Shown here in pieces: positions 41,131-61,256 of a stretch of DNA of 64,000 nucleotides. The DNA is from Nitrospirota bacterium. GTDB taxonomy: Bacteria; Nitrospirota; Thermodesulfovibrionia; Thermodesulfovibrionales; Dissulfurispiraceae. Each line of letters opens with the position of its first letter. Position 1 is the stretch's first letter. Position numbers and translations under genes: made by a program. The notes under the pieces were generated by a model. The model was not told the origin of the DNA. It did no database searches and worked only from the letters and a program-made list of their open reading frames with translations. The DNA lies in the NCBI GenBank assembly GCA_963710375.1, contig CAVPZX010000002.1:480001-544000 (forward strand), read 5' to 3'.

Positions 41131-41142
41131 ACGGCTAAATCC

Positions 41143-42047: not shown

Positions 42048-42188
42048 AATCTCTCCTCAGTAAATCTACAGTTTTGGTGCAATCGATGTCAATGAGAGCT
42101 TTAGGGAGTGTCGATTTGCCTCATCGGAAATCTATTCTAAAGTGAATATTGCTTAGTCCCAAAGCAAACTGTTAAACTTAGAGTCAAA

Positions 42189-43358: not shown

Positions 43359-44362
43359 TGCCTGCCCGTTTAGGAAAAGAAGACCTCTTACAGCTGGTGC
43401 TTGCGGCTGTCCGGTCGTCAGGATGGAATGCTATTGTTCTGTCTCCAGCTTCACCTTTCCGACTGTCGATTTTTGAGGGCAATACCACTATTGTAGTCCT
43501 CTGCTACATCTGGAACATGACCCACGGAGGATTTCCGAGAAACCCTAATGAGCTTAGAATCCAGATTACTGGTGTCGATCGGTTCCAGGTCGAGGCCGGA
43601 GTCAAAACATTACTTCTTGGCTGGAGCGAGGAAGAAAAAATGTTTGCCGGTTTCGATGTCACGAAGCATCTCATTTCAATGAAGGGAAGATCACCCTCCC
43701 TTCAGGTGAGGCGCGAGACTTTGCAGACAGCAAAGATCAAGGACTTTTTCCCTCAGATTAGGGGTAATCAGGAAAATGTAATCGCGTTCAGACCGGAGTT
43801 CTTTGTAACCTATGTGCAGGAACTTGAGGACCTTCACGGTGCGGCGCAGCGCCCTGTTGACATAAAACGTCTGGAAAAGCTCGCAACGAGTGATATTGAA
43901 TGGCGGGTCAAAGATCTGCCTGCTGGCCCACGAAGAACAATCATGGAGAAAATAACGAGAAAAGTTCGCGACGCAAGGTTCAGAAAGAATGTTCTTGCAG
44001 CTTACGGATTCAGGTGTGCCATGAGCGACATACAACTCGATTTGCTCGATGCTGCGCATATTATTCCAGTGGAGCACCAGAAAGGCACGGATGAGACCAA
44101 GAACGGCCTGTGTCTGAGCGCACTTCATCACAGGGCTTTTGATCAAGGTCTTATCGGGATAAAGCGAAACTATTCGATAATTTTTAATGAAGAACGTTTC
44201 GGTCGTCTGAGAGCGCTTGGGTGGGATGGCGGAGAATCTGAGTTCAAAAAAACCTGCCGCGATGCGATAAATCTTCCTAAACGAAAAGAGTTTTATCCTG
44301 ATCGGGATTATTTGATTTTAGGACAAATCCTTCGTGGTTGGAATGCAAAAGTATTCACGTAG
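43355..44362 (+). CDS. HNH endonuclease with a distinct N-terminal domain (YIWN.THGG...ELRIQIT)
   Basis: RDARFR..V..AY..RCA, LDAAHI, NGLCLSALHH.AFD; overlaps the methyltransferase stop. Confidence 0.85.
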   Translation: MMPARLGKEDLLQLVLAAVRSSGWNAIVLSPASPFRLSIFEGNTTIVVLCYIWNMTHGGFPRNPNELRIQITGVDRFQVEAGVKTLLLGWSEEEKMFAGFDVTKHLISMKGRSPSLQVRRETLQTAKIKDFFPQIRGNQENVIAFRPEFFVTYVQELEDLHGAAQRPVDIKRLEKLATSDIEWRVKDLPAGPRRTIMEKITRKVRDARFRKNVLAAYGFRCAMSDIQLDLLDAAHIIPVEHQKGTDETKNGLCLSALHHRAFDQGLIGIKRNYSIIFNEERFGRLRALGWDGGESEFKKTCRDAINLPKRKEFYPDRDYLILGQILRGWNAKVFT

Positions 44363-44410
44363 TCTGGAATTTACGACGTGTGCTGACGTGGTTGAGCCGG
44401 ATTAAGCGTA

Positions 44411-45094
44411 ATGAGTCAGACATATGCCCCAGAAGTAGAAAAGGTGGCGCTTAAATTAAGGAAGGAATATGAGGACTTTGCCCACCATAACAAAAAGAAC
44501 CCCTTGGACGAACTATTCTTTATTCTGTGCAGTGTAAAAAGAAGCGAGAAGGTCTATCTCAAAGCCTACAAGTCTATAAAGCGAAACTTTCCAAGATATG
44601 AGCTGCTTGCCACGTCGTCCACTAAAAAGATAAGTAAAACTGTTTCTTGGGGCGGTCTGCAAAATCAAAAAGCAGCTATAGCCAAGGAAATTATCAGACA
44701 GCTGATAGTGAGTTTCGGAAAGCCAACTTTGGCCCCGCTCAAGAAAATGTCAGATGAAGAATGTGAGAGTTATCTTATGAGTCTCCCTGGCATAGGGAAA
44801 AAAGTCGCTCGATGTGTAATGCTTTATTCGCTTAATCGGCGAGTTTTCCCCGTGGATGCACACTGTTGGAGGATTTCACGTAGGATAGGATGGAATGTGA
44901 CGGGCCGGAACACCGACAGTTGCAGTAACAGAGCCATGGATCACTTGCAAGCGCGTATCCCTCCTGCACTGCGGTTTTCTTTACACGTAAACATGGTTTC
45001 ACACGGTCGCAAAATATGCACTGCCAGCAAGCCTAAATGCGGTGAGTGCGTCATAGTGTTTTTCTGTAAAAAGATCGGAGTAGCAAAAGGTTAG
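44411..45094 (+). CDS. Endonuclease III-like HhH-GPD DNA glycosylase with [4Fe-4S] cluster
   Basis: HhH LPGIGKKVA, FPVDAH, C-x6-C-x2-C-x5-C (CTASKPKCGECVIVFFC). Confidence 0.87.
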   Translation: MSQTYAPEVEKVALKLRKEYEDFAHHNKKNPLDELFFILCSVKRSEKVYLKAYKSIKRNFPRYELLATSSTKKISKTVSWGGLQNQKAAIAKEIIRQLIVSFGKPTLAPLKKMSDEECESYLMSLPGIGKKVARCVMLYSLNRRVFPVDAHCWRISRRIGWNVTGRNTDSCSNRAMDHLQARIPPALRFSLHVNMVSHGRKICTASKPKCGECVIVFFCKKIGVAKG

Positions 45095-45231
45095 CGAGCC
45101 TTATTCTGAAGGACGAAGGCTTTCTATGCAGACGTTGTTAACTTGCAGTGGTTATCATCTGGAGCCAAATCCATGCTTAACATAGCTTCTTAGGATAAAT
45201 CCGTTTAACCTGACGCCAAACTGAGCGCAGC

Positions 45232-45305
45232 GAAGGCGGGAGGGAGGCAGGCACGGCGGCAGCCGGCCTGCCTCCCTCCCGCCTTCTGATAACTTGATAT
45301 ATATT
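45232..45305 (+). other. Candidate double-strand origin: 21-bp perfect hairpin followed by AACTTGATA
   Basis: GAAGGCGGGAGGGAGGCAGGC inverted at 45266-45286, then TGATAACTTGATAT resembling the phiX174/pC194-type CTTG^ATA nick site. Confidence 0.6.
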
Positions 45306-45336
45306 GGTTATAACTGCAACATGACTTCAAAATAAC

Positions 45337-45365
45337 TTGACATAATTTATTAACTATAGTAATAT
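45337..45365 (+). promoter_or_regulatory. Sigma70-type promoter for the HTH-HTH-integrase operon
   Basis: TTGACA-17 bp-TAATAT just before ATG 45372 (possibly leaderless). Confidence 0.55.
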
Positions 45366-45371
45366 TTAAGC

Positions 45372-45755
45372 ATGGTTAAGAGAATAATAGCTAAGATAAA
45401 TGAGGGGCAGGAAAGGACGCGATGGGGCAAAGGGACTATTGTATGTAAATCCATGGAAGAATTTGACAAGTATTTAAATCAATTTAAAGGGCAAATGGTC
45501 TCTCCTGGAACCGCTGCCTCAAGGTTAGGTGTTTCCCGTGCTTACATTAATCAGCTCGAAAAAGAGGGAAGAATAAGAGCGTATAGAATATGGAATGAAG
45601 ATATACATTGGGACAGTCTGCCTTTGAAGTGGAGGCCGTTTGTCGCTGTAAGGGATGTTTATATTTACATTCCTGATGAGGATATCGAGAGGATTAGAGA
45701 GGAGTTAATAAAAAAGGCCGAGAACAAGCTAAGAAAACTTAGAGGGAAAAAATGA
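45372..45755 (+). CDS. Small HTH-like DNA-binding protein (regulator/excisionase candidate)
   Basis: VSPGTAASRLGVSRAYINQLEKEGRI resembles a MerR/Xis-type HTH; upstream of the integrase. Confidence 0.7.
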   Translation: MVKRIIAKINEGQERTRWGKGTIVCKSMEEFDKYLNQFKGQMVSPGTAASRLGVSRAYINQLEKEGRIRAYRIWNEDIHWDSLPLKWRPFVAVRDVYIYIPDEDIERIREELIKKAENKLRKLRGKK

Positions 45756-46117
45756 ACGAGCGCCATCTTACATATGAACTTGCTGAGAGGTTGAAAGTAT
45801 CTACTGAAACAAATATCTTCAGCAGGGGGACTATTGTTTGTAATTCCTGGGAAGAATTTGATGAGGCTATTAAGGATGTTGACTGTGGGCTTGTATCTCC
45901 GGGCGGCGCCGGTTTGCCGCGTTCTTATATTCATCAGCTTGAAAAAGATGGCTCGATAAGGGTGTTCAGAGTGATAGTTGATGGCAAGAGCTTTAAATAT
46001 TACCCTTCGCATGTACGCTTTTTGTATCCATCCAAAGATGTTTATGTTTTCATACCGGTGGATGATATTAACAGAATAAAAAGCATGATGAATAGGACGG
46101 AGGTGTCTTATGCCTGA
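45752..46117 (+). CDS. Paralogue of the preceding HTH-like protein
   Basis: Shares GTIVC.S.EEFD, VSPG, R.YI.QLEK.G.IR and DVY..IP..DI.RI with 45372-45755. Confidence 0.72.
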   Translation: MNERHLTYELAERLKVSTETNIFSRGTIVCNSWEEFDEAIKDVDCGLVSPGGAGLPRSYIHQLEKDGSIRVFRVIVDGKSFKYYPSHVRFLYPSKDVYVFIPVDDINRIKSMMNRTEVSYA

Positions 46118-47345
46118 AGGACAAGGCATAATAAGAGTTCCCAATAATCAGCGATGCCCTAAATGTAACGGAGTTTTCAAGCGCGTTATAGTGAAGGGCG
46201 CTTCCGGCATAGCCTATAGATGTCCTGATTGTTTGACCTTTCCTGACCGTTATTACCTGGATGTGCATCATAAGGGCGAAAGAATCCGAGTTTTTAGCGA
46301 TAAGCAGGGGAAGCCTTTAGATGCATTTCAGCGGGCCGTTGACCTTTTGAGTCATATTAATTATGAAATTGAAAATCATATTTTTGATTTTTCCAAATAT
46401 AAGAAATCGGAACAAAAAGAGTTTTATGTCTGTACGAAGCTTGATGAATATCTGGATCATAAGATAGACTCTCTTGCTCCGAGCTATCAGGCAGATTTTA
46501 GGAGGTATGTCGGCATTGCTAAAGACTTCTTCAAAACGACTGATGTCAGAGAAATAAAGAAGATCGATGTTATTAATTATCAAAAATATTTGAAGGAGAG
46601 TTTTAACATAGGCAATAAGACGATTAAAAATAATATCGATGTTTTTAAGGCTTTCCTAAACTATCTTAAAAACGATTTGGAAATAATATCCATTGTTCCA
46701 AGGTTTCCCGATATTGATATAGATATAAAACCTTTTAAATGGCTGACGCAAGAAGTACAGGTTAAGGCATATGAGTTGTGGCCTGATACTGATAAACCTA
46801 TCTTTGCTTTTTTAATGTTGCACGGTTGCCGTCCATCAGAAGCACGGGCTTTAAAATGTAAAAATATTGATCTTCAAAATCATACCATTACAATATGTGC
46901 GACCTTTTCAGGACATGTTTACAGGGAAAAAAGGAAGGGCAAAAAAGCGAGATTTGTAACAGTTCCAATTCATCCGGAATTATATGGATTCATTGTTGAG
47001 AGAGTTAAAAATAATTTACCTGAGGCTTTTGTTTTTATAAATCCTAATACCGGCAAGCATTATTGTGAAAATAGTTTACGGATCATATGGGCTACTGTTC
47101 GGAAAAGTACGGGACTCGATAATAGTGTCCGTTTGTATGATGCCACAAGGCATTCATTTGCAAGCAACCTTGTAAATAGTGGATCGTCTATATACAAGGT
47201 TTCAAAATTGCTTGGTCATAGCTCGGTAAAGATGACAGAGAAATATGCGCATTCAGAGATTGAGAGTCTGAGGGTTGATATAGAAAAGCTATCATTAAAC
47301 TGTCATCCTACTGTCATCAAAAAGGTTTCAGGTGATAAAAAATAA
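46110..47345 (+). CDS. Tyrosine integrase with N-terminal zinc ribbon
   Basis: GCRPSEARAL, LYDATRHSFAS, LLGHS, TEKY; CPKC...CPDC at the N-terminus. Confidence 0.93.
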   Translation: MPEGQGIIRVPNNQRCPKCNGVFKRVIVKGASGIAYRCPDCLTFPDRYYLDVHHKGERIRVFSDKQGKPLDAFQRAVDLLSHINYEIENHIFDFSKYKKSEQKEFYVCTKLDEYLDHKIDSLAPSYQADFRRYVGIAKDFFKTTDVREIKKIDVINYQKYLKESFNIGNKTIKNNIDVFKAFLNYLKNDLEIISIVPRFPDIDIDIKPFKWLTQEVQVKAYELWPDTDKPIFAFLMLHGCRPSEARALKCKNIDLQNHTITICATFSGHVYREKRKGKKARFVTVPIHPELYGFIVERVKNNLPEAFVFINPNTGKHYCENSLRIIWATVRKSTGLDNSVRLYDATRHSFASNLVNSGSSIYKVSKLLGHSSVKMTEKYAHSEIESLRVDIEKLSLNCHPTVIKKVSGDKK

Positions 47346-47377
47346 TTACAATACAATTAGTTATATTTGGTTGTTGG

Positions 47378-47403
47378 GGGTTCGATTCCCGCCGCCTCCA
47401 CCA
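47378..47403 (+). repeat. attR core, duplicate of the tmRNA 3' end
   Basis: Identical 26-mer to 40263-40288. Confidence 0.95.
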
Positions 47404-48143: not shown

Positions 48144-48788
48144 TCAAGTTTTGAAAATAGTTATCGCTTTTGCCGCCAAGCCCGCGTGAGCGACATCTTC
48201 CGGGGTAGTATTGGTTATGGGTATGTCATTGCCAAGGAAATCCCTTCCGGCTTCTTTGTAACAATACCGCACAAAACCACTGCAGTAAGTGGCGTGAGGA
48301 TCGTTCATGGGATTTTCCTGCCACTGCTTCTTGGTGATAATTGAGAACCACGTACCCATGAGTTCCTGTATCGGATAGAGAACCTGTTCGTTAACGAGTT
48401 CCAGCGCTGTAGCGAGAACTTGGTGCAGCTGGTCATCGGCGAGGCCGAAATCGATTGCTGCAGCATTTTCGACCTTGGAGTCGCTCCATTTGCCTATCCA
48501 GTTTTCCTGTGCTCCGTTTCTGACCTGGGGCTCGAAAAAGTTAATCTTCAGGTCGCTTTCGAATAGATAAGGGCTTTTTGTTACTGATTTACCTGGTCCG
48601 TGCCTGTCGAGCCGCAAGTCTCCCATGATGAAGCAGTGTGACCACAAAGATGGGGAATGGTCAGACGTAATAGCCCTTTGCGCATCCCTAATGGCAAGCC
48701 CCACGGCGTCTTTGGTGCCCACAAGACCGATGAGCCCCGGCTTATAATGAGCAGTGAAGAATTCAAGCAAAGCATCGTCAACTGCCAT
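48144..48788 (-). CDS. Permuted papain-like (NlpC/P60, YiiX/YebB-type) thiol hydrolase
   Basis: His before Cys: LWSHC ... TYCSGFV..CY, TPED. Confidence 0.68.
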   Translation of the reverse strand: MAVDDALLEFFTAHYKPGLIGLVGTKDAVGLAIRDAQRAITSDHSPSLWSHCFIMGDLRLDRHGPGKSVTKSPYLFESDLKINFFEPQVRNGAQENWIGKWSDSKVENAAAIDFGLADDQLHQVLATALELVNEQVLYPIQELMGTWFSIITKKQWQENPMNDPHATYCSGFVRYCYKEAGRDFLGNDIPITNTTPEDVAHAGLAAKAITIFKT

Positions 48789-48919: not shown

Positions 48920-49312
48920 CTATATAGGGGAATGCCTGTACGCTTTTCCACCTAATGCCGAATTAACGATCCTGACAATATCTTCAGGTTTAAATGGCTT
49001 ATTGACGCAATCTACCGCGCCAAGGTCTCTGGCAGCCTGAAAAAAATCCATATTGCCCTGGTAGAAACCTGACATCGCAATAATTTTTGCTTCAGGAAAT
49101 TCTCTCATGATCTCGCGTATAGTTTCCAGCCCGTCTTTTCCCGGCATATATATGTCGGCAAGAACGATGTTTGTATTGGTTCGGCGGTAGGACTCTACGC
49201 CTTCTTTGCCGTTGGAGGCTACATAAACTTCATAATTCAGATGTTCGAAAATCTCTTTTAGAAGATTTCTCAAAGAGATGTCGTCGTCAATGATGAGGAT
49301 GCTTTTTGCCAA
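48920..49312 (-). CDS. Single-domain response regulator
   Basis: ILIIDDD, LADIYMPGKDG, IAMSG, KPF; TTG start at 49312 after GGAGG. Confidence 0.9.
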   Translation of the reverse strand: MAKSILIIDDDISLRNLLKEIFEHLNYEVYVASNGKEGVESYRRTNTNIVLADIYMPGKDGLETIREIMREFPEAKIIAMSGFYQGNMDFFQAARDLGAVDCVNKPFKPEDIVRIVNSALGGKAYRHSPI

Positions 49313-49344
49313 TACCCCTCCTTGCCGAGTGAAATCAGTTAACT

Positions 49345-49392
49345 TTTTATAACAGATGCCTTGTATGGAAAACAATTACCCGAAAGTAGTAT
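49345..49392 (-). promoter_or_regulatory. Conserved 18-bp box plus extended -10 (copy 1)
   Basis: ATTACCCGAAAGTAGTAT at 49375-49392 (+ strand); TGTTATAAAA on the minus strand at 49354-49345. Confidence 0.7.
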
Positions 49393-49469
49393 ATGCTTGG
49401 AAATGCACTACGCGTTTTAAAAAAATCCCCACAAATTTGCAACTTCGCAATAATGGGAGCGCAGGCATT

Positions 49470-50042
49470 TTAATGCTTATCAGGTTGAATAATTCCCAGG
49501 CTAATAGCAGTATTCATGGCCTGGGCCCTGTTTGTGACATGAAGTTTCTTATATGAATGCTTCAGGTGGGCCTTTACAGTCGACTCGGATATGTTCAATA
49601 GTTCCCCTATTTCCTGATTGTTTTTACCCTCTTTGACCCAGCGTAAGATTTCAACCTCACGAGGGGAAAGGACGCCCTTGCAGGAATTTTCTATTGCTTT
49701 CTTTATCAGTTCCACCAATTCATCGTATGGAGCAGTTTTTTGTATGAAATCAAGTGCTCCTCCATGAACAGCTTTAACAGCATCGGGGATAGTACCATAA
49801 GCCGTGAGCATTATTATCGGCACACTGCTATTGATATGCTTTAATGCCTTAACTGTATCGATACCGTTTATCCCCGGTATTTTCATGTCTACAATGGCCA
49901 AATCAGGAATGAACTCCTTAAAAGAGTCTATAGCCTCAAATCCGTTCTTAGCCTCCAGCACCTTAAACCCCTCAAGCTGGAAAACTAACCTGGCCGCCCT
50001 TCTGAAATCATCGTCGTCATCAACGATCAGAATACTATGCAT
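49470..50042 (-). CDS. Response regulator, REC + LuxR/NarL HTH
   Basis: ILIVDDD, IVDMKIPG; LSPREVEIL..V.EG..N.EI...L.ISESTVK.H. Confidence 0.93.
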   Translation of the reverse strand: MHSILIVDDDDDFRRAARLVFQLEGFKVLEAKNGFEAIDSFKEFIPDLAIVDMKIPGINGIDTVKALKHINSSVPIIMLTAYGTIPDAVKAVHGGALDFIQKTAPYDELVELIKKAIENSCKGVLSPREVEILRWVKEGKNNQEIGELLNISESTVKAHLKHSYKKLHVTNRAQAMNTAISLGIIQPDKH

Positions 50043-50058
50043 AATCTCTCCCTTTCTT

Positions 50059-51435
50059 TCAGGCATCATTTTCAGTCTTCTGAGTCAGAAGTGGCAAATA
50101 TACTTTAAACGACGCACCCTCTCCCCTGATTGAATCGACGTTTATAAAACCATTGTGCTCTTTTATTATACCGTATACTATGGCAAGGCCTAGTCCCGTT
50201 CCCTTACCCATCTCTTTTGTTGTAAAAAACGGCTCGAATATCTTTGATTTTATTTCAGCGTCAATGCCCTCTCCGGTATCCTGTACCGTGATACAGGCAA
50301 AGCGTCCGCCTGCCCTCAGTCCGAACTTCTCTGCATCTTTCCTGTCAATAGTGACTTCCTCTGTTTGGATGGTAAGGGTGCCTCTCTTACTCATGGCATC
50401 CAGTGCATTGTTGACAAGGTTCATCACTACCTGTTCGAGTTGCAGCCTGTCTCCCTTAATCATAACATCCCCTTCAGACAGTATTTCTCTGTATTCATGC
50501 CGCTCTGCAATAAGCGGCTCCACCGTTTGTCTGAGCGATTTCACCACGCTGTTTATATCAAGAATAGCAAATTTGTTTCTTTCCGTGTTGCTGAAAGCCA
50601 GCAGGGATTCAACGAGTTTCTTCGCTCTATCAAGAGAGCCCTCGGTAAATGTGACGTATTCAGACAGGTTATTGTCTTGCAGCTTCTTTCTCAACACGTA
50701 CAGATACCCCTTTGCAGCACCCAAAACGCTGTTGAAGTCGTGAGCGATGCCGCGCGCAAGAGTCCCGACAGCTTCCATTTTTTCCATCTCAGCCATTCTG
50801 CGTTCGAACGGCACTGTAATTCTCTTAACCGTAAAATAAATTCCCAAAGCTATCGAAACAATGAAAAGAACAGCAATAGCAGCGTTTAACAAAAGCACCT
50901 TTTTTAGAGCGGCATTTAATTTTACCTTATCAATAACAAGATACACGTAACCAATGGTCTTTTTAATTTTTTTGGATTTTTCGGCGAAAAGGGCTACCTC
51001 GCTGTTATCGGGGACTTCAATTGCTATAGACCTGTTGAATTCAAAAAAATTCTTCGACTCTGTCATGGAGGACACGGGGGGGAAAGGCGCGCAGCTGCCA
51101 GCATGCCCATGCATTTTGCTCCATAGGAAAAGGACTTTGCCGTTGTCATTTAAAACAGTTACGGACACGACGCCTTCCTGCATAATAATTCCCTGCACAA
51201 CTGTTTCGATCATCCCTTTATCTTCAGCAAACACCGCAGTCCTAAGGCTTTCGGAGCATATAGCCGCAAGCGACAGTCCTTCTTTGATCAATGATTCCTT
51301 TATCTCGTCCTGCTCCCTGTGCACTATAATGACTGTAGAAAGTATAGACAAAAGTATCGTAATCGATGTCAACCATATAAAGAGCCGCAAACCGATACCA
51401 TGGCGGGATGAACGTGCACGGCTATCGGTCCTCAT
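50059..51435 (-). CDS. Membrane sensor histidine kinase (2 TM, periplasmic domain)
   Basis: LARGIAHDFN, QVVMNLVNNA.DA, DTGEGI, FEPFFTTK, GTGLGL. Confidence 0.93.
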   Translation of the reverse strand: MRTDSRARSSRHGIGLRLFIWLTSITILLSILSTVIIVHREQDEIKESLIKEGLSLAAICSESLRTAVFAEDKGMIETVVQGIIMQEGVVSVTVLNDNGKVLFLWSKMHGHAGSCAPFPPVSSMTESKNFFEFNRSIAIEVPDNSEVALFAEKSKKIKKTIGYVYLVIDKVKLNAALKKVLLLNAAIAVLFIVSIALGIYFTVKRITVPFERRMAEMEKMEAVGTLARGIAHDFNSVLGAAKGYLYVLRKKLQDNNLSEYVTFTEGSLDRAKKLVESLLAFSNTERNKFAILDINSVVKSLRQTVEPLIAERHEYREILSEGDVMIKGDRLQLEQVVMNLVNNALDAMSKRGTLTIQTEEVTIDRKDAEKFGLRAGGRFACITVQDTGEGIDAEIKSKIFEPFFTTKEMGKGTGLGLAIVYGIIKEHNGFINVDSIRGEGASFKVYLPLLTQKTENDA

Positions 51436-52403
51436 TGCAAGACCTCCGTCTTTCTAAAAACACGGTTAGGGATCCGTATGCCGAGTTTTGAAGCTATTTT
51501 ATGGTTAATGACCAGGAGCGCCTTTCTTGCATAGTAAACAGGGGCGGGCTTCACATCACCGTTTTTAAGAACGGACCATGCCATCTCCCCGGTCTGTTTG
51601 CCTATGTCAAAAGGGTCTATCTCAAGGGACAAAAGTGCACCCATTTCGAGAAATTTGCGGGAAAAAGTCATCAGCGGTATTTTGTTTTGATAAGAAAACG
51701 AAACCATTGACAGTACAGAATCATCAGCGGCAACAGTGGTGTCCGGTATCATCATAAGAAGGTCTACCCTTCCTGTAAGAGATGTGAGCGCGGCAGGCAC
51801 ATCTCTTGCCGAAGGTACGTCTTTCAGAATAATTTGCAGCCCTTTTTCTCTTCCTGCTTTTAACAGCTCTTGCGAATAAGCTCCGGACAGTGCGGGATTG
51901 ATTATGAGCCCTATCCTGCTGATGTGAGGTAAAATCTCAGCAGCGGCATCCAGATATTTGTCAGGGTCGACATCTGTGCTGACCCACCATATGTTATCTT
52001 CTTTGGCCTGCTTGTAAGGATAGACAAGCATTGTGAAGAGGCGGACCGTTTTTAATGATTTGACTGCTTTGTATGCTTTAGACCCGATGGCGACCACTGC
52101 ATCAGGGGACGAATCGAGGATATTGCCCACAATATTATTGACGTTTCCCCTCGAAAGATCGATGACTTTGACAGAGCAGTTGCAGGAGTTTTCAAATCCT
52201 TCAAGGGCATCATTATACAGTTTGATATTATCGCTTTTTACTACGGTTATATCGTAAGCGCTAGCCTCCCCTGCCGCAAGAACCTGCAAAAGCAGACATA
52301 TTGCACAGAATGCAATGGGGAAGGCCCGGTGAAGGGCAAAAGGTATCTTACCGATGTCTGAACTCGATATCCTGCAAAACAAACGCCTTAAGAGAAGCAT
52401 CAT
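51432..52403 (-). CDS. Periplasmic ABC-type substrate-binding protein (no permease nearby); start uncertain
   Basis: Signal peptide ending AGEASA; VVAIG, RIGLI.NP, MIPD.TV, GALLS, G.Q.G, LVIN.K.A..LGI. Confidence 0.82.
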   Translation of the reverse strand: MMLLLRRLFCRISSSDIGKIPFALHRAFPIAFCAICLLLQVLAAGEASAYDITVVKSDNIKLYNDALEGFENSCNCSVKVIDLSRGNVNNIVGNILDSSPDAVVAIGSKAYKAVKSLKTVRLFTMLVYPYKQAKEDNIWWVSTDVDPDKYLDAAAEILPHISRIGLIINPALSGAYSQELLKAGREKGLQIILKDVPSARDVPAALTSLTGRVDLLMMIPDTTVAADDSVLSMVSFSYQNKIPLMTFSRKFLEMGALLSLEIDPFDIGKQTGEMAWSVLKNGDVKPAPVYYARKALLVINHKIASKLGIRIPNRVFRKTEVLQ

Positions 52404-53637
52404 AATAATCCTTGCGGCAGTCTACTCCGGCAACGTCTCCTTTCGCAATAAAGCGCATATACCTGCAACCGCCGAAGCAAAGCGGGAGATAGCAGCATGA
52501 AAGGCACTGCTCATTTTTCCAGATGTCCAGCGCATAAGTATCATTGTATTTTTTGCACCCTTCTTTCAACGTTCCTATCTTAAAGTCTTCCCTCCCGATA
52601 AAACCAGGACACTTATAGAGGTCGCCGTTATAGTTGACTACAAAAAAATTTCCGCTCTCTATCACACACAGGGACGGCTTGATAAATTGTGTTTTGAAGC
52701 CGCGTTTCATTATGGCTTCCCTCAAAAAAACGCCTGCTTCAATTACCCATTGCTCACTATTGGACGTGCACCACTCGGCGTAGTCCGGAATAACAAATGC
52801 CTTGTTAACTGCTGTAACAGGGTCGAATTTAACAGATTTGATTACATCGGGCGTAAGCCCTTCGTCAATAAGATAATCGAGCAGTTTGGGGAATTCAGTA
52901 TAATTGTTGCGGGCATAATTACCGCCGATCTGTATGCTGATATCCCGGCAAACCTGCTTGAGATTCTCAATAATTATATCAAAAGAGCCCTTGCCTGATC
53001 GAAAGGGGCGTGAAACATTATGGGTGGCACGGGGACCGTCGAGGGTCACCTTTGCTCCCACAAGTCCCAAAGGTTTTAGCTGCTGCACAACCTGGCTGGT
53101 CAGCAGTGTGCCGTTTGTTACAAGATTAAAGCTGTAGCGCAATCCCTTATTTGCCGCGAGGTCTTTGAGCCCACCGGACATGCGGACTATCGATTTAATG
53201 CTCAATAGCGGTTCTCCGCCGTAAAAAGTTACGAAGATCTCTTTCTTATTATCATCAATGTTTGCTTCGATAAAGTTGACTAAATCACTCTCTGTCTCCT
53301 CTGACATAAAGTGGTGGCCTTTGACAGCGCCTTCGAAACAATAAGGACATGCCAGGTTGCAGGATAGGTTCAAAACCACGATTAGCGAGAGTTTATTGTT
53401 CAACTCATCGCGACCCTTCATGTAATCCTTCATTGCCGCTGATTCCTGCTCAATGCTGGGCACCATGAAGCCAAGCCTATCCAGAGCAGAGCGGATATCA
53501 GGGCTTACGTCACCGCCGAGCACATCCTGAAGAACAGAATCTTTGAGCGCTATGGTTGCTGCATTCTTTGTGGAATAAAGAATGTTGCGGTCTTCTTTAA
53601 GACTATAAATTTTGCAATATTGGGATAGTTCGCTCAT
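52348..53637 (-). CDS. Radical SAM/SPASM peptide maturase (geopeptide-maturase-like)
   Basis: CNLACPYC, FYGGEPLL, VTNG, TLDG; SPASM C...GDLYKC and CLSCCYLPLCFGGC...C. Confidence 0.9.
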   Translation of the reverse strand: MSELSQYCKIYSLKEDRNILYSTKNAATIALKDSVLQDVLGGDVSPDIRSALDRLGFMVPSIEQESAAMKDYMKGRDELNNKLSLIVVLNLSCNLACPYCFEGAVKGHHFMSEETESDLVNFIEANIDDNKKEIFVTFYGGEPLLSIKSIVRMSGGLKDLAANKGLRYSFNLVTNGTLLTSQVVQQLKPLGLVGAKVTLDGPRATHNVSRPFRSGKGSFDIIIENLKQVCRDISIQIGGNYARNNYTEFPKLLDYLIDEGLTPDVIKSVKFDPVTAVNKAFVIPDYAEWCTSNSEQWVIEAGVFLREAIMKRGFKTQFIKPSLCVIESGNFFVVNYNGDLYKCPGFIGREDFKIGTLKEGCKKYNDTYALDIWKNEQCLSCCYLPLCFGGCRYMRFIAKGDVAGVDCRKDYYDASLKAFVLQDIEFRHR

Positions 53638-53648
53638 AAAAATTAGAG

Positions 53649-53672
53649 TGGAGGGGCGCTATGGCCCCTCCA
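53649..53672 (-). other. Stem-loop between peptide gene and maturase
   Basis: TGGAGGGGC-6 nt-GCCCCTCCA without an adjacent U-tract; likely mRNA-stabilising or attenuating. Confidence 0.65.
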
Positions 53673-53682
53673 GAATTCTTTG

Positions 53683-53772
53683 TTAATCAAGAAGTGGCAC
53701 CAGAGATCCTACGCAGCAAAACTGACCAGCATCGATTTGCTCCTTTGTATAACCCTCGAATAACACCTCCAT
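53683..53772 (-). CDS. 29-aa putative RiPP precursor MEVLFEGYTKEQIDAGQFCCVGSLVPLLD (not in ORF track)
   Basis: AGGAGGG RBS upstream; directly 5' of the rSAM/SPASM gene; Cys-Cys core. Confidence 0.85.
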   Translation of the reverse strand: MEVLFEGYTKEQIDAGQFCCVGSLVPLLD

Positions 53773-53822
53773 GTGATATCCCTCCTGCTATTGAACTGGT
53801 CCTTCTAATGAAGGACTTGAGG

Positions 53823-55703
53823 CTAGAACGACATCCTTACCCCTCCCTCCACCCAGCGGTGGGGGTTTCTGTACAAACCGATAGCATATTGGTCGCCGTT
53901 AAATATATTGTTTACTGCAAAGAATCCCTCCCAGACAACCCACTTGTTTCTTGCCAATACTTTTGATATATTGGCATCCACGATTAGGGCATTATAATTG
54001 CCGCCATTTGAAGCTTCAGAGGTCCACCAGATGTAGTGTCCCTTCACCAATGCTTTCAGGGAATCCCTATCATCGTATTTCAGTCCAAAATCGTACGTAC
54101 ATGTAGGCGTATTCAGGATAATGGAATTGGTGTTGATATTACGGGCCCCGATAAAAGAGGCGCCTGCTGTAAGGGAGATATTATAGATTGGCGTTGTGCT
54201 GATCTCGGATTCTATGCCTTGCCGCCTGTCCTTGTCCCTGTTGACTAACACCGATGTGGTGGAAGTCACAGGCTCTAAGGCAATGGCATTGCTGACTATG
54301 TGGTGGAACATCATCACCTTCAAATTCGTGAAAGGGATAACTGTGGTCTCAATCCCGGCCTGGTAGGAAGTGACCCCCTCAACTTTGAGATTAGGGTTTG
54401 AAATGATAGAACTGCCATTGCCATATGTGTAAGACAACGGGGGCACATTAAACCCCCTGGCAGCATCCGCGCGCAGAAGGAAAACATCGCTAAACTTGTA
54501 TGTCGCGCCGAATGAAGGGCTTATAAAATCGCCGTTGGTGTTGGTGTAGTCATATCGAAGGCCGGGCGTAACAGTAAGACGGGGAACTGCCGTGATAGAA
54601 TCATTTACGAACACGGCGGCCTTGTCAAGGCCCTTCTTAAGACCTGATACGCCATTCGAACGAAGTATGCCGGAGTCATAATCACTGCCAAAAACAACAT
54701 TATGGACATCGGATTTCCAATTAGCTTTAATGGTACCCCCTATATCGGTATCATTGAAGTAATTTCTCAGAATATCCTGACCCGATGAAATGAGGGAATA
54801 GTCCTGGTGGCGCTGCTGCTTCAAGGCATGCAGGGCGAGGCTGAAATCGATACTGTCGGCCACTTTTGTATTGAATGACAGAGACGAACGCAGGTAAGTG
54901 AAAGCGTCTCCAATATCCAGTCCGTCTGGTTGATCTTCCAGGATGCCGCGGCTTCCCTCAGTGTAGCTCAAGCTAAGGACCACATCAGAGACGCCTTCAT
55001 GATAACTTAATTTTGTGAAAACATTGTTATTCTCAGTTGCATTGTTCAGCCTGAACCCGTCTGATACAAAGCGGCCGGCGTAAAAATAGTAGCCGAATTG
55101 CGAGAGCCTGCCATATATTTCGGCCCGCGAATCGTTAGTGGTGCGTTCCCCGTACATAATGTCAAGCTCGCCTTTCGCTTTCTTTGTGGTGTCAGCCGAC
55201 TTTGTTATGATGTTGATAATTCCACCAAGAGCAGAGCCCCACGCCGATGATGCAGGCCCCTTGATGATCTCGATACGCTCGATATTTTGAACAGGGATCG
55301 CAGCTATGTCAGCAGTGTTATCCGATAAATTATTGATAATCACACCGTCTATTGCTACAGTGACGTGCCTCGAATCAGAGCCCTGCAAAGACACTGATGC
55401 AATACTGCCGGGCCCTCCCGTAACCAGGACCTGCACACCTGTTATGTTATTAAGCACATCGACGAGAGTATGCGCCCCTGACAGTTTAATGTCCTCAGCG
55501 GTAATAACAGTCACATTCTCGGCTGTCTGTGACAGCGGTTTGGATGATCTTGTAGCGGTTACAACAGACTGGTCACTAAACATGCTGACAAAGGCCTTTT
55601 CCTGCTCGTCGTCAGTCTGCGCTAATACATGCATCGGAAGACCTATATGAAGCACTAATAATAAAAAGAGCGAAAGGGTAAAAGGCGACACACCCGACTC
55701 CAT
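53823..55703 (-). CDS. TonB-dependent outer-membrane receptor (start uncertain, 55691-55820)
   Basis: Plug VVTATRS, TVITAEDI, IERIEIIKGP.S.AWG..LGGIINIIT; GLRYD, NPNLK.E; terminal Phe. Confidence 0.92.
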   Translation of the reverse strand: MESGVSPFTLSLFLLLVLHIGLPMHVLAQTDDEQEKAFVSMFSDQSVVTATRSSKPLSQTAENVTVITAEDIKLSGAHTLVDVLNNITGVQVLVTGGPGSIASVSLQGSDSRHVTVAIDGVIINNLSDNTADIAAIPVQNIERIEIIKGPASSAWGSALGGIINIITKSADTTKKAKGELDIMYGERTTNDSRAEIYGRLSQFGYYFYAGRFVSDGFRLNNATENNNVFTKLSYHEGVSDVVLSLSYTEGSRGILEDQPDGLDIGDAFTYLRSSLSFNTKVADSIDFSLALHALKQQRHQDYSLISSGQDILRNYFNDTDIGGTIKANWKSDVHNVVFGSDYDSGILRSNGVSGLKKGLDKAAVFVNDSITAVPRLTVTPGLRYDYTNTNGDFISPSFGATYKFSDVFLLRADAARGFNVPPLSYTYGNGSSIISNPNLKVEGVTSYQAGIETTVIPFTNLKVMMFHHIVSNAIALEPVTSTTSVLVNRDKDRRQGIESEISTTPIYNISLTAGASFIGARNINTNSIILNTPTCTYDFGLKYDDRDSLKALVKGHYIWWTSEASNGGNYNALIVDANISKVLARNKWVVWEGFFAVNNIFNGDQYAIGLYRNPHRWVEGGVRMSF

Positions 55704-55841
55704 CGAAAGTGACGTTGAAATCATTAATATGATACATGTTCCCCACCGTAAAAGTATATGTACTCTTTTTTTAAAAAACTGTACAGTCAAACCCCTTATT
55801 TTACAGCAAAATTCCACCACTTTTAACCATATTAATAGTTA

Positions 55842-55889
55842 TTTTATAACACATCGAATGTCCATCTGGATATTACCCGAAAGTAGCAT
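55842..55889 (-). promoter_or_regulatory. Conserved 18-bp box plus extended -10 (copy 2), upstream of the TonB receptor operon
   Basis: ATTACCCGAAAGTAGCAT at 55872-55889; TGTTATAAAA on the minus strand at 55851-55842. Confidence 0.7.
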
Positions 55890-55910
55890 GCCAAATAAGA
55901 TTTAACATCC

Positions 55911-55958
55911 ATAGTACTTTAGGGTAATTGTTTTCCATACTGAAAACCTGTTATATGT
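55911..55958 (+). promoter_or_regulatory. Conserved 18-bp box plus extended -10 (copy 3), driving the divergent small gene
   Basis: ATAGTACTTTAGGGTAAT at 55911-55928 (reverse complement ATTACCCTAAAGTACTAT); TGTTATATGT at 55949-55958. Confidence 0.68.
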
Positions 55959-56046
55959 TAACAAACCGGCAAATGATGGGAACTGCCGGATAATGGGCAT
56001 TTCGAGAAACGAGCAAAAACCGGGTATTAAGTTTGAGGAGGTTCTC

Positions 56047-56211
56047 ATGATAGTTGAAAGGGTATTAAACGACATTCCAGACAGTGATGTGGCTCAGGTA
56101 GTAATTAATATTGAGAGTGAAGGTTGCAGTGCAATTAAGATACAACAAGCAGATGGAAATTGGACAATAATAGCTACCTGTCCAGTAAATCAGCATCCAA
56201 CAACGCGCTGA
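56047..56211 (+). CDS. 54-aa hypothetical protein
   Basis: GAGGAGGT RBS before ATG 56047; MIVERVLNDIPDSDVAQVV...GNWTIIATCP. Confidence 0.7.
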   Translation: MIVERVLNDIPDSDVAQVVINIESEGCSAIKIQQADGNWTIIATCPVNQHPTTR

Positions 56212-57031: not shown

Positions 57032-58201
57032 TCAGCTCGCCCTCAAGGCATCCACAATATTCATGCGTGACGCCCTGACAGCCGGCAGCACACCGCCCAC
57101 GAAACCCATTATAAGCGAAAAAAACATGGACTGATAAATGATCTTTATAGTCAGTGAGAAGGAGAAAGCAAGCTCTGAAAAGGTTTGGAAATTCATGGTT
57201 GAAATCGTAATTAGCTGCATAAAAGAAGCGAAAAACAGCCCTATGCAACCGCCGGCAAGGCCTAGCAGCAGGGATTCCATGAGAAAGGCAGTTAGGATAT
57301 TGCGCCTTTGAAAACCGAGGGCCCTCAATGTGCCGATTTCATTGGTCCTGTTCGCCACCGCAGCATACATGGTTATCATTGCGCCGATTGTGGCCCCTGT
57401 CGAAAATATGATTGTTAGCGAGAGCCCCAGAACTCTGAGAAACTTCGCCATAACCCTGGATTGCTCTTCATAATACACACTCTCCCTTTTCACCTCGACA
57501 GTCATGCGTGGATCATTCTCGAGGCGTAACTTAATCTTGTCGAAATCCGCGGGATCACTCAACTTAAATGTAACCGAGGAATAGACAGGCCTGCGAAAGG
57601 CTTGCATGAGCTGGTCCACATCTCCCCATATTTCGGAGCTGAAACCGGTGTTTCCTGCGTCGAATATGCCTACGACATTCCAGTCCCGCATGCCGAAACG
57701 GAGTGTTTCGCCAAGGCCTCCTCCCTTGAACCTCCTGGCTATACTTTGTCCAGCCATGATTTCTGAGGAGCCCGGTCGCGGCATGCTCCCTGCCGCGAGT
57801 TTTACCTGTGGTCTCAGCAAGAGTGAATTTTCAGTTGTCCCCCTTATAACAACATTGGACGGTTTGTTGCTGCCGCGTTTAGGAAGGTTTATAAGCACAA
57901 CCAATTCCCTGGCAACCAGGCGGTTGCCGTTCACCCCTATGGCTATTTCAGGCTGCGTCTCGACTATGGAAGCGGAAAGTCTGTCAATCCCGCTCTGCAC
58001 CTCGGAATCTGACCCTTTTCTGATAACTATGCAATTGTCATAGGAGCCCGTATTTACAAGGGTTTTCTTCAGCCCCTCGGCAAGCATCAATATGGAAGCA
58101 AAAACAAATACCACAAGCGCCATGCCTAATATCGTAAGCACATTCGTCAGCCTTCGCGTCCAGAGGTTGCGGATACTGTATGAAAAAGGGATTCTCCCCA
58201 T
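57032..58201 (-). CDS. ABC exporter permease (MacB/FtsX type)
   Basis: One TM, large periplasmic domain, RTNEIGTLRALGF, PAVRASR. Confidence 0.9.
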   Translation of the reverse strand: MGRIPFSYSIRNLWTRRLTNVLTILGMALVVFVFASILMLAEGLKKTLVNTGSYDNCIVIRKGSDSEVQSGIDRLSASIVETQPEIAIGVNGNRLVARELVVLINLPKRGSNKPSNVVIRGTTENSLLLRPQVKLAAGSMPRPGSSEIMAGQSIARRFKGGGLGETLRFGMRDWNVVGIFDAGNTGFSSEIWGDVDQLMQAFRRPVYSSVTFKLSDPADFDKIKLRLENDPRMTVEVKRESVYYEEQSRVMAKFLRVLGLSLTIIFSTGATIGAMITMYAAVANRTNEIGTLRALGFQRRNILTAFLMESLLLGLAGGCIGLFFASFMQLITISTMNFQTFSELAFSFSLTIKIIYQSMFFSLIMGFVGGVLPAVRASRMNIVDALRAS

Positions 58202-59359
58202 TTAGCCTATACTCCTCAGTCCGTCAGCTATACGTATGTGTACGCAACGCCAGGCCGGCACAATAGCAGCGACCACCCCAACCAGCAGCGCGGCTGCGAT
58301 ATCCATATAAATAGTTGTGGTTGCCACATTGAACACCGGGAAATAGTCGCCCATGGCCTCGCCGAACGCCTTAGCAACAGGAAATGTGGCTGCAATGCCT
58401 GCTGCGCCGCCTATAATAGCGATGACGATTGATTCTCCAAATATCAGGCCGGCCAGGTGCGATCCGCCGAACCCGAGTGCTTTAAATACTGCATATTCCC
58501 CAAGCCGCTCGCGGGCATTCATAGCCATTGTATTAGCCATAACAGCCATGATTATAATGATTACCACAAAGGACACTAACTGGATAGCAACGACTATAGC
58601 CTCCGACATGGAGATAAACCCCAGCGCGAAAGCCTTTTCCGTTTCGGTCAATGTTTCTGCAAGTGAGTTTTTGAACATTTTATCTACTGTCTGTGAGACC
58701 TCGGCTGCAAGGCCGGGGTTTTTAATACCGATCAAATAGAAACCGACCTGATCTGCTCTGAGCGACGCAGTTTTTTTGAGTGATTCATTGAGATAATCCC
58801 AGTGGAACAGGAATTCCGTTTCATCAGTGCTTTTTTCCCTGCCGTGATAAATGGCACGCAGCACAAATTCCCAGTTGCCTGGGAAGATGGTACCCTTCAG
58901 CGTAATCGTATCACCTATTTTCCAGTGGTATTTCTCTGCGATTTTTCGGCCGGCGACCGCGGCCTTGCGGTCCCGGACAAAAGCCTCCTGCTGGTCAGGG
59001 GGGATCAAAAACTCGGGGACCAGCGCGAGATAGCTTTTAGGTTCTACAGCGAAATTAGGGAAAAAGTGTTTCTCGTCAATGTAAATACCGCCAAACCAGT
59101 TTGCACGTGCCACGGTTTTCACTCCCTGTACATGGCTAATCTGTTCCTCATACGAGAGGGGAAGCGTAAAGACCAGTGAGATCGCATTCCTTGTTACAAG
59201 ACGGGTCGCCGAAGAGGCCTCAACTCCTGCATACCAGGCGCTTACAACTGTCCTGAGAAGACCGAAGGCAAGTATGGCGACAGTGATGCCGACAATAGTG
59301 AGCCATGTCCGGAGTTTGTGACGAAAAGCGTTCTTAAAAATGAGCTTCAGGATGAACAT
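58202..59359 (-). CDS. ABC exporter permease (MacB/FtsX type)
   Basis: RHKLRT.LT, RER..E.AV.KALGF, PAWR. Confidence 0.9.
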   Translation of the reverse strand: MFILKLIFKNAFRHKLRTWLTIVGITVAILAFGLLRTVVSAWYAGVEASSATRLVTRNAISLVFTLPLSYEEQISHVQGVKTVARANWFGGIYIDEKHFFPNFAVEPKSYLALVPEFLIPPDQQEAFVRDRKAAVAGRKIAEKYHWKIGDTITLKGTIFPGNWEFVLRAIYHGREKSTDETEFLFHWDYLNESLKKTASLRADQVGFYLIGIKNPGLAAEVSQTVDKMFKNSLAETLTETEKAFALGFISMSEAIVVAIQLVSFVVIIIIMAVMANTMAMNARERLGEYAVFKALGFGGSHLAGLIFGESIVIAIIGGAAGIAATFPVAKAFGEAMGDYFPVFNVATTTIYMDIAAALLVGVVAAIVPAWRCVHIRIADGLRSIG

Positions 59360-60038
59360 TTAATACACCTTTTTCCAGATGCTTTATTACATGGGCCTTT
59401 TCAGCAGCTCGAGGGTCGTGCGTTACCATGACGATAGTCTTGCCTGACTCGGCATTGAGGCGTTCCATCAAATCAAGTATCTCTCGTGCGGAAACACGGT
59501 CAAGATCACCTGTCGGCTCATCGGCCACTAGTATGGCCGGGTCGGTTATTACGGCACGTGCTATGGCTACGCGCTGCTGCTGACCGCCGGAGAGCTGTCC
59601 CGGGTAGTGGTCCATCCTGTCGGCAAGACCTACTATTGAAAGAGCGACTTCCGCATGTTCGCGCCGCTCACTTCGCGAGAGCCCGGTCAACAGAAGCGGC
59701 AACGCAACATTCTCGAAAGCGGTAAGAACCGGGATAAGATTGTAAAACTGAAAGATAAAACCCACATTGTCAGCCCGCCAGCGTGCAAGCTCAGTTTCGG
59801 TCAGAGTCGTTATATCGATAGCTCCCACTTTGATAGTACCGCTGTCAGCCTTGTCAATGCCGGCAATAAGATTGAGCAGGGTGCTCTTGCCGGAGCCTGA
59901 CGGTCCCATAAGAGCCAGGAACTCGCCGTCTTTGATATCAAATGTGAGGTCGTTCAGCACAGGCACTATTTGGGAGCCTTTATGGTATGATTTGCTCAGA
60001 TTCTGTATTTCAACAATCGGCCGTGGTTCTGCTTCCAT
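59334..60038 (-). CDS. ABC transporter ATP-binding protein (LolD/MacB type)
   Basis: GPSGSGKST, LSGGQQQRV, ADEPTG.LD, VTHD. Confidence 0.95.
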   Translation of the reverse strand: MEAEPRPIVEIQNLSKSYHKGSQIVPVLNDLTFDIKDGEFLALMGPSGSGKSTLLNLIAGIDKADSGTIKVGAIDITTLTETELARWRADNVGFIFQFYNLIPVLTAFENVALPLLLTGLSRSERREHAEVALSIVGLADRMDHYPGQLSGGQQQRVAIARAVITDPAILVADEPTGDLDRVSAREILDLMERLNAESGKTIVMVTHDPRAAEKAHVIKHLEKGVLNVHPEAHF

Positions 60039-61256
60039 CTATTTTTCTACAACTTTTATCTTCGTGCCGTTTCTTAATCCGGACGGCGGATTGGCTGCTA
60101 ATTTGTCCCCTGCCTGTACTCCTCCGGTCACCTCCAGCATATCGCCTCTCTTCGCGCCGATCGTTACCGGAGTCTCTATCGCCCGGTTGCCCCTGATAAT
60201 AAAAACAACCTTTCGATCAGAACGGCTTACAACGGATGCAGGGTTAAGGGCGGTGAACGGCGTTTGCTCATCCCGTCCTGCCGGCCTGGAGAGAAATGCG
60301 ACTTTCGCGCTCATTTCCGGCAATATGCGTTTGTCCTCGTCAATAAAACGCACCTTCACCAATACGGTCGCCTTGCTCCGGTCAGCGGTAGGGACAACCG
60401 TGCTGACCTCTCCCCTGAAGCGGGATTCCGGCAATGCATCGAGCTGAAGCACGCACGGCTGTCCCACCCTGACCTGCTGCAGGTTGGATTCCGATACATC
60501 AGCCTCCACTTCGAGAGAACTCATATCAGCAATAGTTACCACTGCGGCCTTCGCATTTACGGCAGCACCTATCGGAGTAACGATATCACCTACATCGGCA
60601 TCTTTCGTTAAAACCACAGCATCAAAAGGTGCGCGTATCAGCGTGTATTCAATAGCAACGTTCGCGCCGTTGAGCGTAGCGATTGCAGCCTTGATGGCAG
60701 CTTCAGCACCTTCCACCGCAGCCTTTGCCTTCTTGTATCGAGCTTCAGCAGTATCATAGTCAGCCTGGGCCACGTACCCTTTTGACAGAAGATCCCGCTC
60801 TCTGTTCAGCTCGAGCGTTGCATCATTCAATTCCGCCTTCGCCTGTTCAAGGTTTGAGCGGGCAACATTAAGATTGGCAGCAGCCTGGTTCTTTTGAGCA
60901 GTAACGTCCTCGTTCTCGAGTCGTGCGATAAGCTGACCTTTTTTCACTACACTACCTTCCTGAACACCCAGCCATACCAGTGTGCCGGTGACCTTTGAAG
61001 CAACAGCAGCTTTGCGTTGGGCCACTACATAGCCGCTTGCATTTAAAAGCGTAAAGGCCTGAGATGGATACATCTTTGACACTGTCACCGCCTCTACTTC
61101 CACCGACGGGGTAAGAGCTCCCTGAAAATAGAGGAACAACAATACAAAAAGCACAACCACAGCTGCTATCAGGGCAGGAGGAATCCTGCGCCGTGAGCGT
61201 CGGGGCGTTTCAGCAACCTTTTGTATCTTCAATTTTGAGAGATCTTCCTGCGCCAT
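60039..61256 (-). CDS. Efflux periplasmic adaptor (MacA/HlyD type)
   Basis: N-terminal TM, ASGYV, V.EG..V.KGQ, alpha-hairpin, IRAPFD. Confidence 0.92.
   Translation of the reverse strand: MAQEDLSKLKIQKVAETPRRSRRRIPPALIAAVVVLFVLLFLYFQGALTPSVEVEAVTVSKMYPSQAFTLLNASGYVVAQRKAAVASKVTGTLVWLGVQEGSVVKKGQLIARLENEDVTAQKNQAAANLNVARSNLEQAKAELNDATLELNRERDLLSKGYVAQADYDTAEARYKKAKAAVEGAEAAIKAAIATLNGANVAIEYTLIRAPFDAVVLTKDADVGDIVTPIGAAVNAKAAVVTIADMSSLEVEADVSESNLQQVRVGQPCVLQLDALPESRFRGEVSTVVPTADRSKATVLVKVRFIDEDKRILPEMSAKVAFLSRPAGRDEQTPFTALNPASVVSRSDRKVVFIIRGNRAIETPVTIGAKRGDMLEVTGGVQAGDKLAANPPSGLRNGTKIKVVEK

Follow-up and report, generated by a model that had tools for sequence, protein, structure and literature searches.

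We analysed 64,000 nucleotides from a Nitrospirota bacterium of the Dissulfurispiraceae (assembly GCA_963710375.1, contig CAVPZX010000002.1, positions 480,001 to 544,000 of the forward strand), a stretch hereafter called the window, in whose own numbering coordinates are given unless a contig is named. It holds a cassette encoding a TonB-dependent receptor, a small Cys-Cys peptide, a radical S-adenosylmethionine (SAM) maturase, a periplasmic binding protein, a membrane histidine kinase and a receiver-LuxR regulator. Judging from its genes and promoters, we consider it reasonably probable that this cassette is an autoinducing peptide signal circuit, that is, peptide quorum sensing in an outer-membrane bacterium, and we adopt this as the lead reading because a box in the operon's own promoter supports autoinduction. 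Cross-linking of the Cys-Cys peptide is the predicted task of the radical SAM enzyme, presumably by thioether chemistry and with removal of the leader; the modified peptide would then leave the cell through an export step and likely re-enter via the TonB receptor. The binding protein, with the peptide as its presumed ligand, would likely hand it to the kinase by direct contact, and the phosphorylated regulator is predicted to bind an 18-bp box in its own and other promoters, presumably in a density-dependent manner.

The first-pass annotation listed the genes in their true order, all are on the minus strand, and their domains match. They encode the receptor, with plug and barrel (PF07715 and PF00593; 53823-55820, the true start being uncertain and likely near 55724); the 29-aa precursor peptide (MEVLFEGYTKEQIDAGQFCCVGSLVPLLD; 53683-53772), with a short leader, an invariant Cys-Cys and a variable hydrophobic tail; the geopeptide radical SAM/SPASM maturase, with a CX3CX2C motif and SPASM cysteines (TIGR04280; 52348-53637); the type I-fold binding protein (PF04392; 51432-52403), with no adjoining ATP-binding cassette (ABC) permease or ATPase gene; the non-hybrid HisKA/HATPase kinase, with two hydrophobic segments (50059-51435); the receiver-LuxR (REC-GerE) regulator (49470-50069, likely start 50042); and a lone receiver-domain protein (48920-49312). 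A GC-rich 9-bp hairpin on the same strand (53649-53672), between the peptide and maturase genes, would raise the peptide transcript above those of the downstream genes. The overlaps described earlier are real, 56 nt between the maturase and binding-protein genes if the first ATG is used and 4 nt between the binding-protein and kinase genes, and the operon is indeed devoid of permease, ATPase, exporter and peptidase genes. Two points needed amendment: position 56211, formerly given as the end coordinate, is the stop of a divergent plus-strand open reading frame (ORF) of 54 aa (56047-56211), and the lone receiver gene, present on the same strand as claimed, probably falls outside the core operon. 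A box-bearing promoter of its own precedes it, and L001, a locus whose cassette is 84% identical to that of the window, lacks it, so it is likely a target gene.

The box that faces the receptor operon lies at 55872-55889 (minus strand), with an extended -10 element (TGTTATAA) 20 nt downstream at 55851-55844, and a receptor-facing box occupies the same position in three related loci (L001, L042 and L120). A second, divergent box with two mismatches (55911-55928, plus strand), followed by a -10-like element at 55949-55956, faces the 54-aa ORF, which has a GAGGAGG ribosome site, matched no family, had no homologue in the fetched loci and is likely a box-controlled accessory gene. The third, an exact match to the consensus (49375-49392, minus strand; extended -10 at 49354-49347), heads the lone receiver gene. 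In a repeat scan of the window these three matches at ≤2 mismatches compared with 0.00 expected, and none of 100 shuffles reached that number. The first-pass annotation does not mention this box. Across the window's genome (G000) we counted seven copies, with a clear score gap beneath them: one each before the operon and the lone receiver gene, and the rest at five further promoters. Targets beyond the window (C2:65577, 449686 and 773812; C7:1758) include a receiver-sigma-54 activator heading an operon of receiver, methyl-accepting chemotaxis protein-like and CheY-like genes, a 272-aa unknown protein, a CRP-family regulator and a PilZ protein.

The distribution of the box matches that of the regulator. 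Among 41 genomes, the exact 13-bp core of the box occurs 6, 18, 7 and 15 times in G000, G001, G008 and G009, respectively, once each within ORFs of two others and in none of the remaining 35; the reversed 13-mer, used as a control, was found in 0 of the 41. The DNA-binding part of the regulator was matched only in those same four genomes, all of which carry a box before the receptor gene (the cassettes of G001 and G009 being split over contigs). At 34 of 48 distinct sites the extended -10 lies exactly 20 nt downstream, at 4 it is 1-3 nt off and at 10 there is none. The flanks of the box are at background identity (0.28 upstream, 0.27 downstream), which, together with the fixed -10 spacing, ruled out the box as a mobile-element end; the shared spacers (0.47) do suggest that box promoters spread by duplication. 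Centred near -43 relative to the predicted promoter, the box is in the layout of a class II activator site. Paralogues of the lone receiver protein sit behind boxes at five sites in G001, and in relatives (L060, L171, L173 and L175) boxes lie upstream of Cas6, a Cas3-containing operon, a TIR-domain gene and a large repeat protein, which suggests that defence genes are under the box regulator there.

We take the operon's receiver-LuxR protein as the best candidate reader of the box, because neither an autoinducer-binding LuxR nor an over-cut-off LuxI was found in the four box-rich genomes (three of them 74-88% complete) and because the four other full LuxR-family proteins of G000 are of the NarL type. 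The absence of autoinducer-binding LuxR and LuxI also ruled out, for the window's clade, a box bound by an acyl-homoserine lactone (AHL)-dependent LuxR. In a tree of 58 helix-turn-helix columns, the window's regulator groups with the LuxR of another genome (G044) and with regulators of family f22, which is of another class, apart from NarL types (85/81), so that its helix-turn-helix appears to be of the AHL-LuxR rather than the NarL type. In G044 a full 20-bp palindrome stands before luxI (L217:8131-9756; PF00765, 61.6 bits), which adjoins a gene for an autoinducer-binding LuxR (PF03472, 84.7 bits). This palindrome matches 14 of 20 bases of the Nitrospira lux box of NspI/NspR1, a box demonstrated by reporter and gel shift as reported in PMC8553950. 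The window's box fits lux-box placement near -42, with a proximal half identical to that of the G044 box and a shifted distal half. The operon likely activates itself through this predicted receiver-LuxR site, as proposed in the first-pass annotation for the LuxR regulator. The box in its own promoter lends that proposal independent sequence support for the window, though not for cassettes in general: of the 42 flanked loci, 14 carry a LuxR-type regulator and 11 one of sigma-54 type, and some cassettes have none. Separately, the perfect palindrome of G044 is common to the luxI/luxR pair and a divergent PAS hybrid kinase gene.

A second lineage points in the same direction. At five of five f22 loci with the same helix-turn-helix type, the palindrome that precedes luxI in G044 (CTACCCGAACGGGTAG) lies upstream of the receptor gene, 22 nt before the -10, and it was found at none of nine other LuxR-bearing loci, mostly of NarL type. 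Its proximal half is that of the window's box, in which the distal half is shifted by 2 bp. Three further regulators inside the helix-turn-helix group have no box of either kind, and in one f22 genome the regulator stands behind a box while the cassette is absent from the 12 kb seen. The genome-wide count of this second box is weak (17 of 301 genomes, against a reversed control in about 50), and only its position and its multi-copy cases are counted here because the reversed control is commoner. In both box types some boxes stand in tandem with a 16-bp period (L170, L176, L001, L091 and L099), and some boxes (L048, L051, L055, L060, L072 and L182) share, as judged by eye, an A/T-rich stretch about 35 nt long, 20-60 nt upstream.

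The signal-making side belongs, by sequence, with the database-named, uncharacterised geopeptide maturase family, which the first-pass annotation did not name. The window's maturase scores 539.5 bits against TIGR04280 ('geopeptide radical SAM maturase', cut-off 400); its nearest named record, from a Nitrospirota metagenome-assembled genome (MAG), is 84% identical. Both TIGR04280 and the precursor model TIGR04229 are hypothetical equivalog models, without a stated function, receptor, sensor or box. The CX3CX2C motif lies at residues 93/97/100, and seven SPASM cysteines are invariant among 44 aligned relatives. The best solved relative of the maturase profile is PDB 5WGG (E 7.7e-40), which we take to be the thioether-forming enzyme CteB. 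The window's protein resembles thioether-forming SPASM maturases in these seven cysteines and in an N-terminal extension at the expected place of a leader-binding domain, and differs in that the Cys-Cys pair of its predicted substrate comes without a conserved acceptor residue. As in ranthi- and sactipeptide systems, a SPASM maturase with auxiliary-cluster cysteines is thus paired with a Cys-bearing substrate. That substrate, encoded behind a strong AGGAGG ribosome site and bearing a single Cys-Cys pair, did not match TIGR04229, a model that does reach E ≤1 with 9 of 28 aligned family peptides. It is, from its alignment, a divergent relative of geopeptide precursors rather than a member of the model, because its leader Leu/Gly and Cys-Cys align with family peptides although TIGR04229 fails. 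Family precursors throughout have a short leader, a Cys pair and a variable tail of 5-13 residues, and tails vary even among close relatives. Precursors of f22 (L092, L096, L109-L111, L116 and L149) carry long Lys/Ala repeats (KKKAT-like) between the start and the Cys-Cys, and some maturases are fused to a helical domain of about 300 aa without an assigned family or to methyltransferase domains (L135, L136 and L147; P0017 and P0032).

Maturases above the cut-off occur in 10 of 41 relatives; among 301 genomes from each of two phyla, 32 had one in the window's own phylum and 22 in that of a Geobacterales MAG, and a protein search for the maturase returned 1461 clusters at E ≤1e-100. We mapped 73 loci by BLAST against the proteins of G000, L040 having been dropped as a duplicate of L001; 42 of them were fully flanked, and partners were counted up to 6.5 kb away, a limit that missed the YfiR gene of L035. 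Of these flanked loci, 40 had the receptor, 36 the binding protein and 38 the kinase (raw counts), and 34, from two phyla, had all three together within the limit. A Cys-Cys small ORF was present at 70 of 77 loci, with Cys-Lys-Cys at one and neither at three flanked and three truncated loci. Gene order varies; the peptide gene stays beside the maturase gene. Over 39 complete loci, the distances of maturase, receptor, binding protein and kinase sensor correlate with one another (r 0.44-0.75, p 0.003), and those of the catalytic part of the kinase do not follow them (r 0.03-0.11). Peptide and maturase genes are thus conserved with the receptor-kinase genes, a condition whose failure would have refuted the first-pass reading: the set is kept across two phyla and its distances track each other. 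From these comparisons, inheritance keeps the input side together as a unit, and the output is swapped.

The window's genome has a second cassette (C2:1055994-1064476), with genes for a YfiR/DUF4154 protein, a 778-aa hybrid kinase, a receiver and sigma-54 domain in two frames, a TonB receptor, a different 30-aa Cys-Cys peptide (10.1 bits against TIGR04229, cut-off 30) and a maturase (581 bits). Upstream is a weak box-like site (score 10.7) with no -10 at the usual spacing.

Turning to the receiver side, the window's TonB receptor belongs to a clade scoring far above ordinary BtuB-like receptors, and TonB is encoded in the genome. The binding protein has a confidently predicted structure (predicted local distance difference test, pLDDT, 90.8), for which Foldseek returned 3LFT, 3LKV and 6HNI/J as best matches (E 1e-17 to 1e-20); the fold is closest to Trp/Phe/Tyr binders, and LuxP is a weaker match (E about 1e-9). 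With the PF04392 amino-acid binders (SP1069, VC1101 and CD0873) it shares the type I periplasmic fold, and it differs from them in its low identity (about 20-23%), in the lack of an ABC transporter here and in two specificity residues that are not kept: Glu263 and Tyr279 of CD0873, the two residues reported to set its ligand specificity (PMC6816091), would align, by our numbering offset, to Ser248 and Pro264. The kinase has a periplasmic sensor of about 140 aa between its two hydrophobic segments, with the family motifs GVFAEN and EExLYF and a weak CHASE8 match. LuxP/LuxQ is a kinase system assisted by a binding protein, and the cassette resembles it in that a binding protein without an ABC transporter is co-inherited with the kinase sensor (r 0.56).

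Several observations weigh against an autoinducing peptide circuit, and we set them out here along with the alternatives that they bear on. The four box-rich genomes form one genus and are not independent, so we count the match between box and regulator as one evolutionary event, not four. A box stands before the receptor in only 9 of 77 upstream regions (two of them mis-cut at contig starts and one short). Neither the palindrome nor a sigma-54 promoter was found before any of the 12 sigma-54-type loci, and we do not extend autoregulation to most cassettes because of these two results. The window's box does not look like a symmetric lux box, its match being confined to the promoter-proximal half; the helix-turn-helix grouping is unstarred at 85/81 and rests on just those 58 columns; and three f22 genomes (G062, G148 and G266) carry 3-5 copies of the second box and no over-cut-off maturase.

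Export is the next difficulty. No exporter or peptidase is conserved across the loci. Directly following the maturase gene at 9 of 73 loci (L002, L003, L036, L039, L104, L130, L135, L146 and L147) is a gene for a half-size major facilitator superfamily (MFS) protein of about 190 aa, a candidate exporter, judging from its position, in that subset of loci, with no close homologue in G000. One unlinked frame with a C39 domain (193 aa) lies elsewhere in that genome. The half-size MFS protein and the ABC/efflux genes of the window (57032-61256) were discarded as the exporter of the cassette, not being conserved. The lack of any evident signal peptide, exporter or peptidase would suit a peptide confined to the cell, in periplasm or cytoplasm, where binding protein and kinase would read it as a probe of the cell's own making, for example for redox, iron-sulfur or envelope state; an iron-sulfur maturase could conceivably report cell state. 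Such an internal probe seems to us very unlikely, however, as it leaves unexplained the outer-membrane receptor of nearly all flanked loci and the lux-like box.

We also weighed whether the peptide is what the receiver unit senses. The expectation that peptide tails would co-vary with the binding protein or receptor beyond shared descent was not borne out: the tail shows a weak link to the maturase (r 0.24), and with the maturase held constant its correlation with binding protein and receptor was r 0.05 and 0.00, in a test of little power because the tails have nine residues. On both the binding-protein tree and the maturase tree, tail classes cluster in the way expected from shared descent. 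Moreover, receptor, binding protein and kinase occur in cassettes without peptide or maturase (L150, L152 and L154), one such receptor-only cassette lying in a 100%-complete genome without a maturase; L159 likewise shows no peptide or maturase, and it stops at a contig edge. In G009 (L123/L203; G009:C177:4389-12604) the box heads a TonB receptor gene and, separately, genes for a thiamine-diphosphate enzyme, a binding protein and a hybrid kinase, with a FabH-like gene between the two, a unit that is a candidate small-molecule version of the circuit. The receiver unit is modular, which fits signalling and also means that the ligand in the window's cassette need not be the peptide.

These observations would agree with a receptor, binding protein and kinase that sense an unrelated outside molecule, with peptide and maturase as co-regulated cargo, for example an antimicrobial. 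That some maturases (L039 and L104) have no binding protein or kinase nearby, and that some box-bearing genomes have no maturase, favours cargo too. We nevertheless regard it as improbable. Through many changes of gene order the peptide gene has kept its place immediately after the receptor gene, most of the top-scoring receptors and binding proteins come from maturase loci, intact or frameshifted, there is no immunity gene or exporter, and receptor-only units are also compatible with eavesdropping. Frameshifted maturases were seen at L046, L149, L161 and L163.

Finally, a self-inducing uptake loop is equally expected of metal or cofactor scavenging. The peptide product might be a secreted scavenger or cofactor, binding a metal or serving as cofactor and returning through the receptor, its loaded form raising its own synthesis through the kinase. 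The methanobactin and pyrroloquinoline quinone (PQQ) systems are precedents in that a peptide-derived product is encoded beside a TonB receptor, a layout that the window's RiPP-type (made on the ribosome, then post-translationally modified) peptide gene shares with that of methanobactin. TonB receptors normally import nutrients, the named models closest to the window's receptor describe receptors for B12, heme and siderophores, all of them falling far short of the cut-off, and the invariant Cys-Cys could bind metal. The cassette differs from both precedents, however, in the enzymes of the locus, in its hypervariable peptide and in having a kinase instead of an importer. We found neither a responsive upstream site nor a route of cytoplasmic uptake: the best Fur-like site in the 77 upstream regions had at least five mismatches in a simple consensus scan, a consensus scan for a cobalamin-riboswitch motif and a search for Rfam families found none, and no inner-membrane permease was seen in the loci. 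Signalling, chemotaxis-like, CRISPR and unknown genes make up the box targets, with no metal enzymes among them, and the adjoining sodC is not kept in L001. Scavenging is in our view unlikely, and peptide quorum sensing remains the lead reading.

Downstream of the lone receiver gene, a 214-aa ORF (48144-48788) matched neither Pfam nor NCBIfam. A transfer-messenger RNA (tmRNA) gene and then a 7-kb integrated element ending in a 24-bp tmRNA-end repeat (47380-47403) occupy 39942-47403; the element encodes an integrase (PF00589) and, by inspection, replication-like, DNA methyltransferase-like, HNH-like and glycosylase-like proteins. The operon is not part of this island, which ends at 47403. In a scan for viral copies, no match among the best 80 listed exceeded 34% identity.

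Compared with known systems, the cassette is like the NCBIfam geopeptide system in its maturase, which is above the TIGR04280 cut-off, and unlike it in its peptide, which fails TIGR04229. Modified-peptide quorum sensing has mainly been characterised in bacteria without an outer membrane, Agr and Com being peptide quorum-sensing systems of Gram-positive bacteria. As in those, precursor, modifying enzyme and two-component system are co-encoded, the peptides are variable and, going by box position and distribution, a regulator site appears to lie in the operon's own promoter; unlike them, the cassette has no AgrB/ComAB-type processing exporter, and it interposes two further components between signal and kinase, one an outer-membrane receptor, the other a soluble binding protein. 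In clostridia, loss of the SCIFF ranthipeptide alters agr and sporulation genes (PMC8102284, citing Chen 2020), a monoderm precedent linking modified peptides to quorum sensing. LuxI/LuxR, as described for Nitrospira NspI/NspR1 (PMC8553950), offers the same helix-turn-helix type, an activator box near -43 and, for the genes presumed to make the signal, a promoter that carries a box; in contrast to it, the cassette has no LuxI or autoinducer-binding domain, takes its input through a phosphorylated receiver and has an asymmetric box. In its working the cassette would thus combine Gram-positive peptide autoinduction with a lux regulon, and it is a member of neither, because it has no AgrB/ComAB-type exporter and no LuxI. 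New here are the 18-bp box, its -10 spacing, the regulator match and the lux kinship; our literature search, whose scope was outside subscription journals and supplements, found no study of a geopeptide receptor-kinase system.

A broader proposal is plausible though short of probable. In it, a LuxI/LuxR-style circuit would have been rebuilt around a signal that does not diffuse: a receiver would have gained a lux-box-binding domain by fusion, a peptide modified by a radical SAM enzyme would have taken the place of the AHL, and a modular unit of TonB receptor, binding protein and kinase would carry the signal over the outer membrane. The same receiver unit would also work with other signal-making enzymes, as with the thiamine-diphosphate and FabH-like enzymes of G009, or with none, as in eavesdroppers, and this may be a general, so far undescribed quorum-sensing architecture among Nitrospirota and Geobacter-related bacteria, with chemotaxis-like, CRISPR and other accessory genes under its control.

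The box makes the signal reading testable without culture of the host. If that reading is true, the cassette would provide a worked route for peptide signals in diderm bacteria and assign a function to a RiPP family that is named yet unstudied and occurs in both phyla sampled, and it would represent a lux regulon rewired to two-component input.

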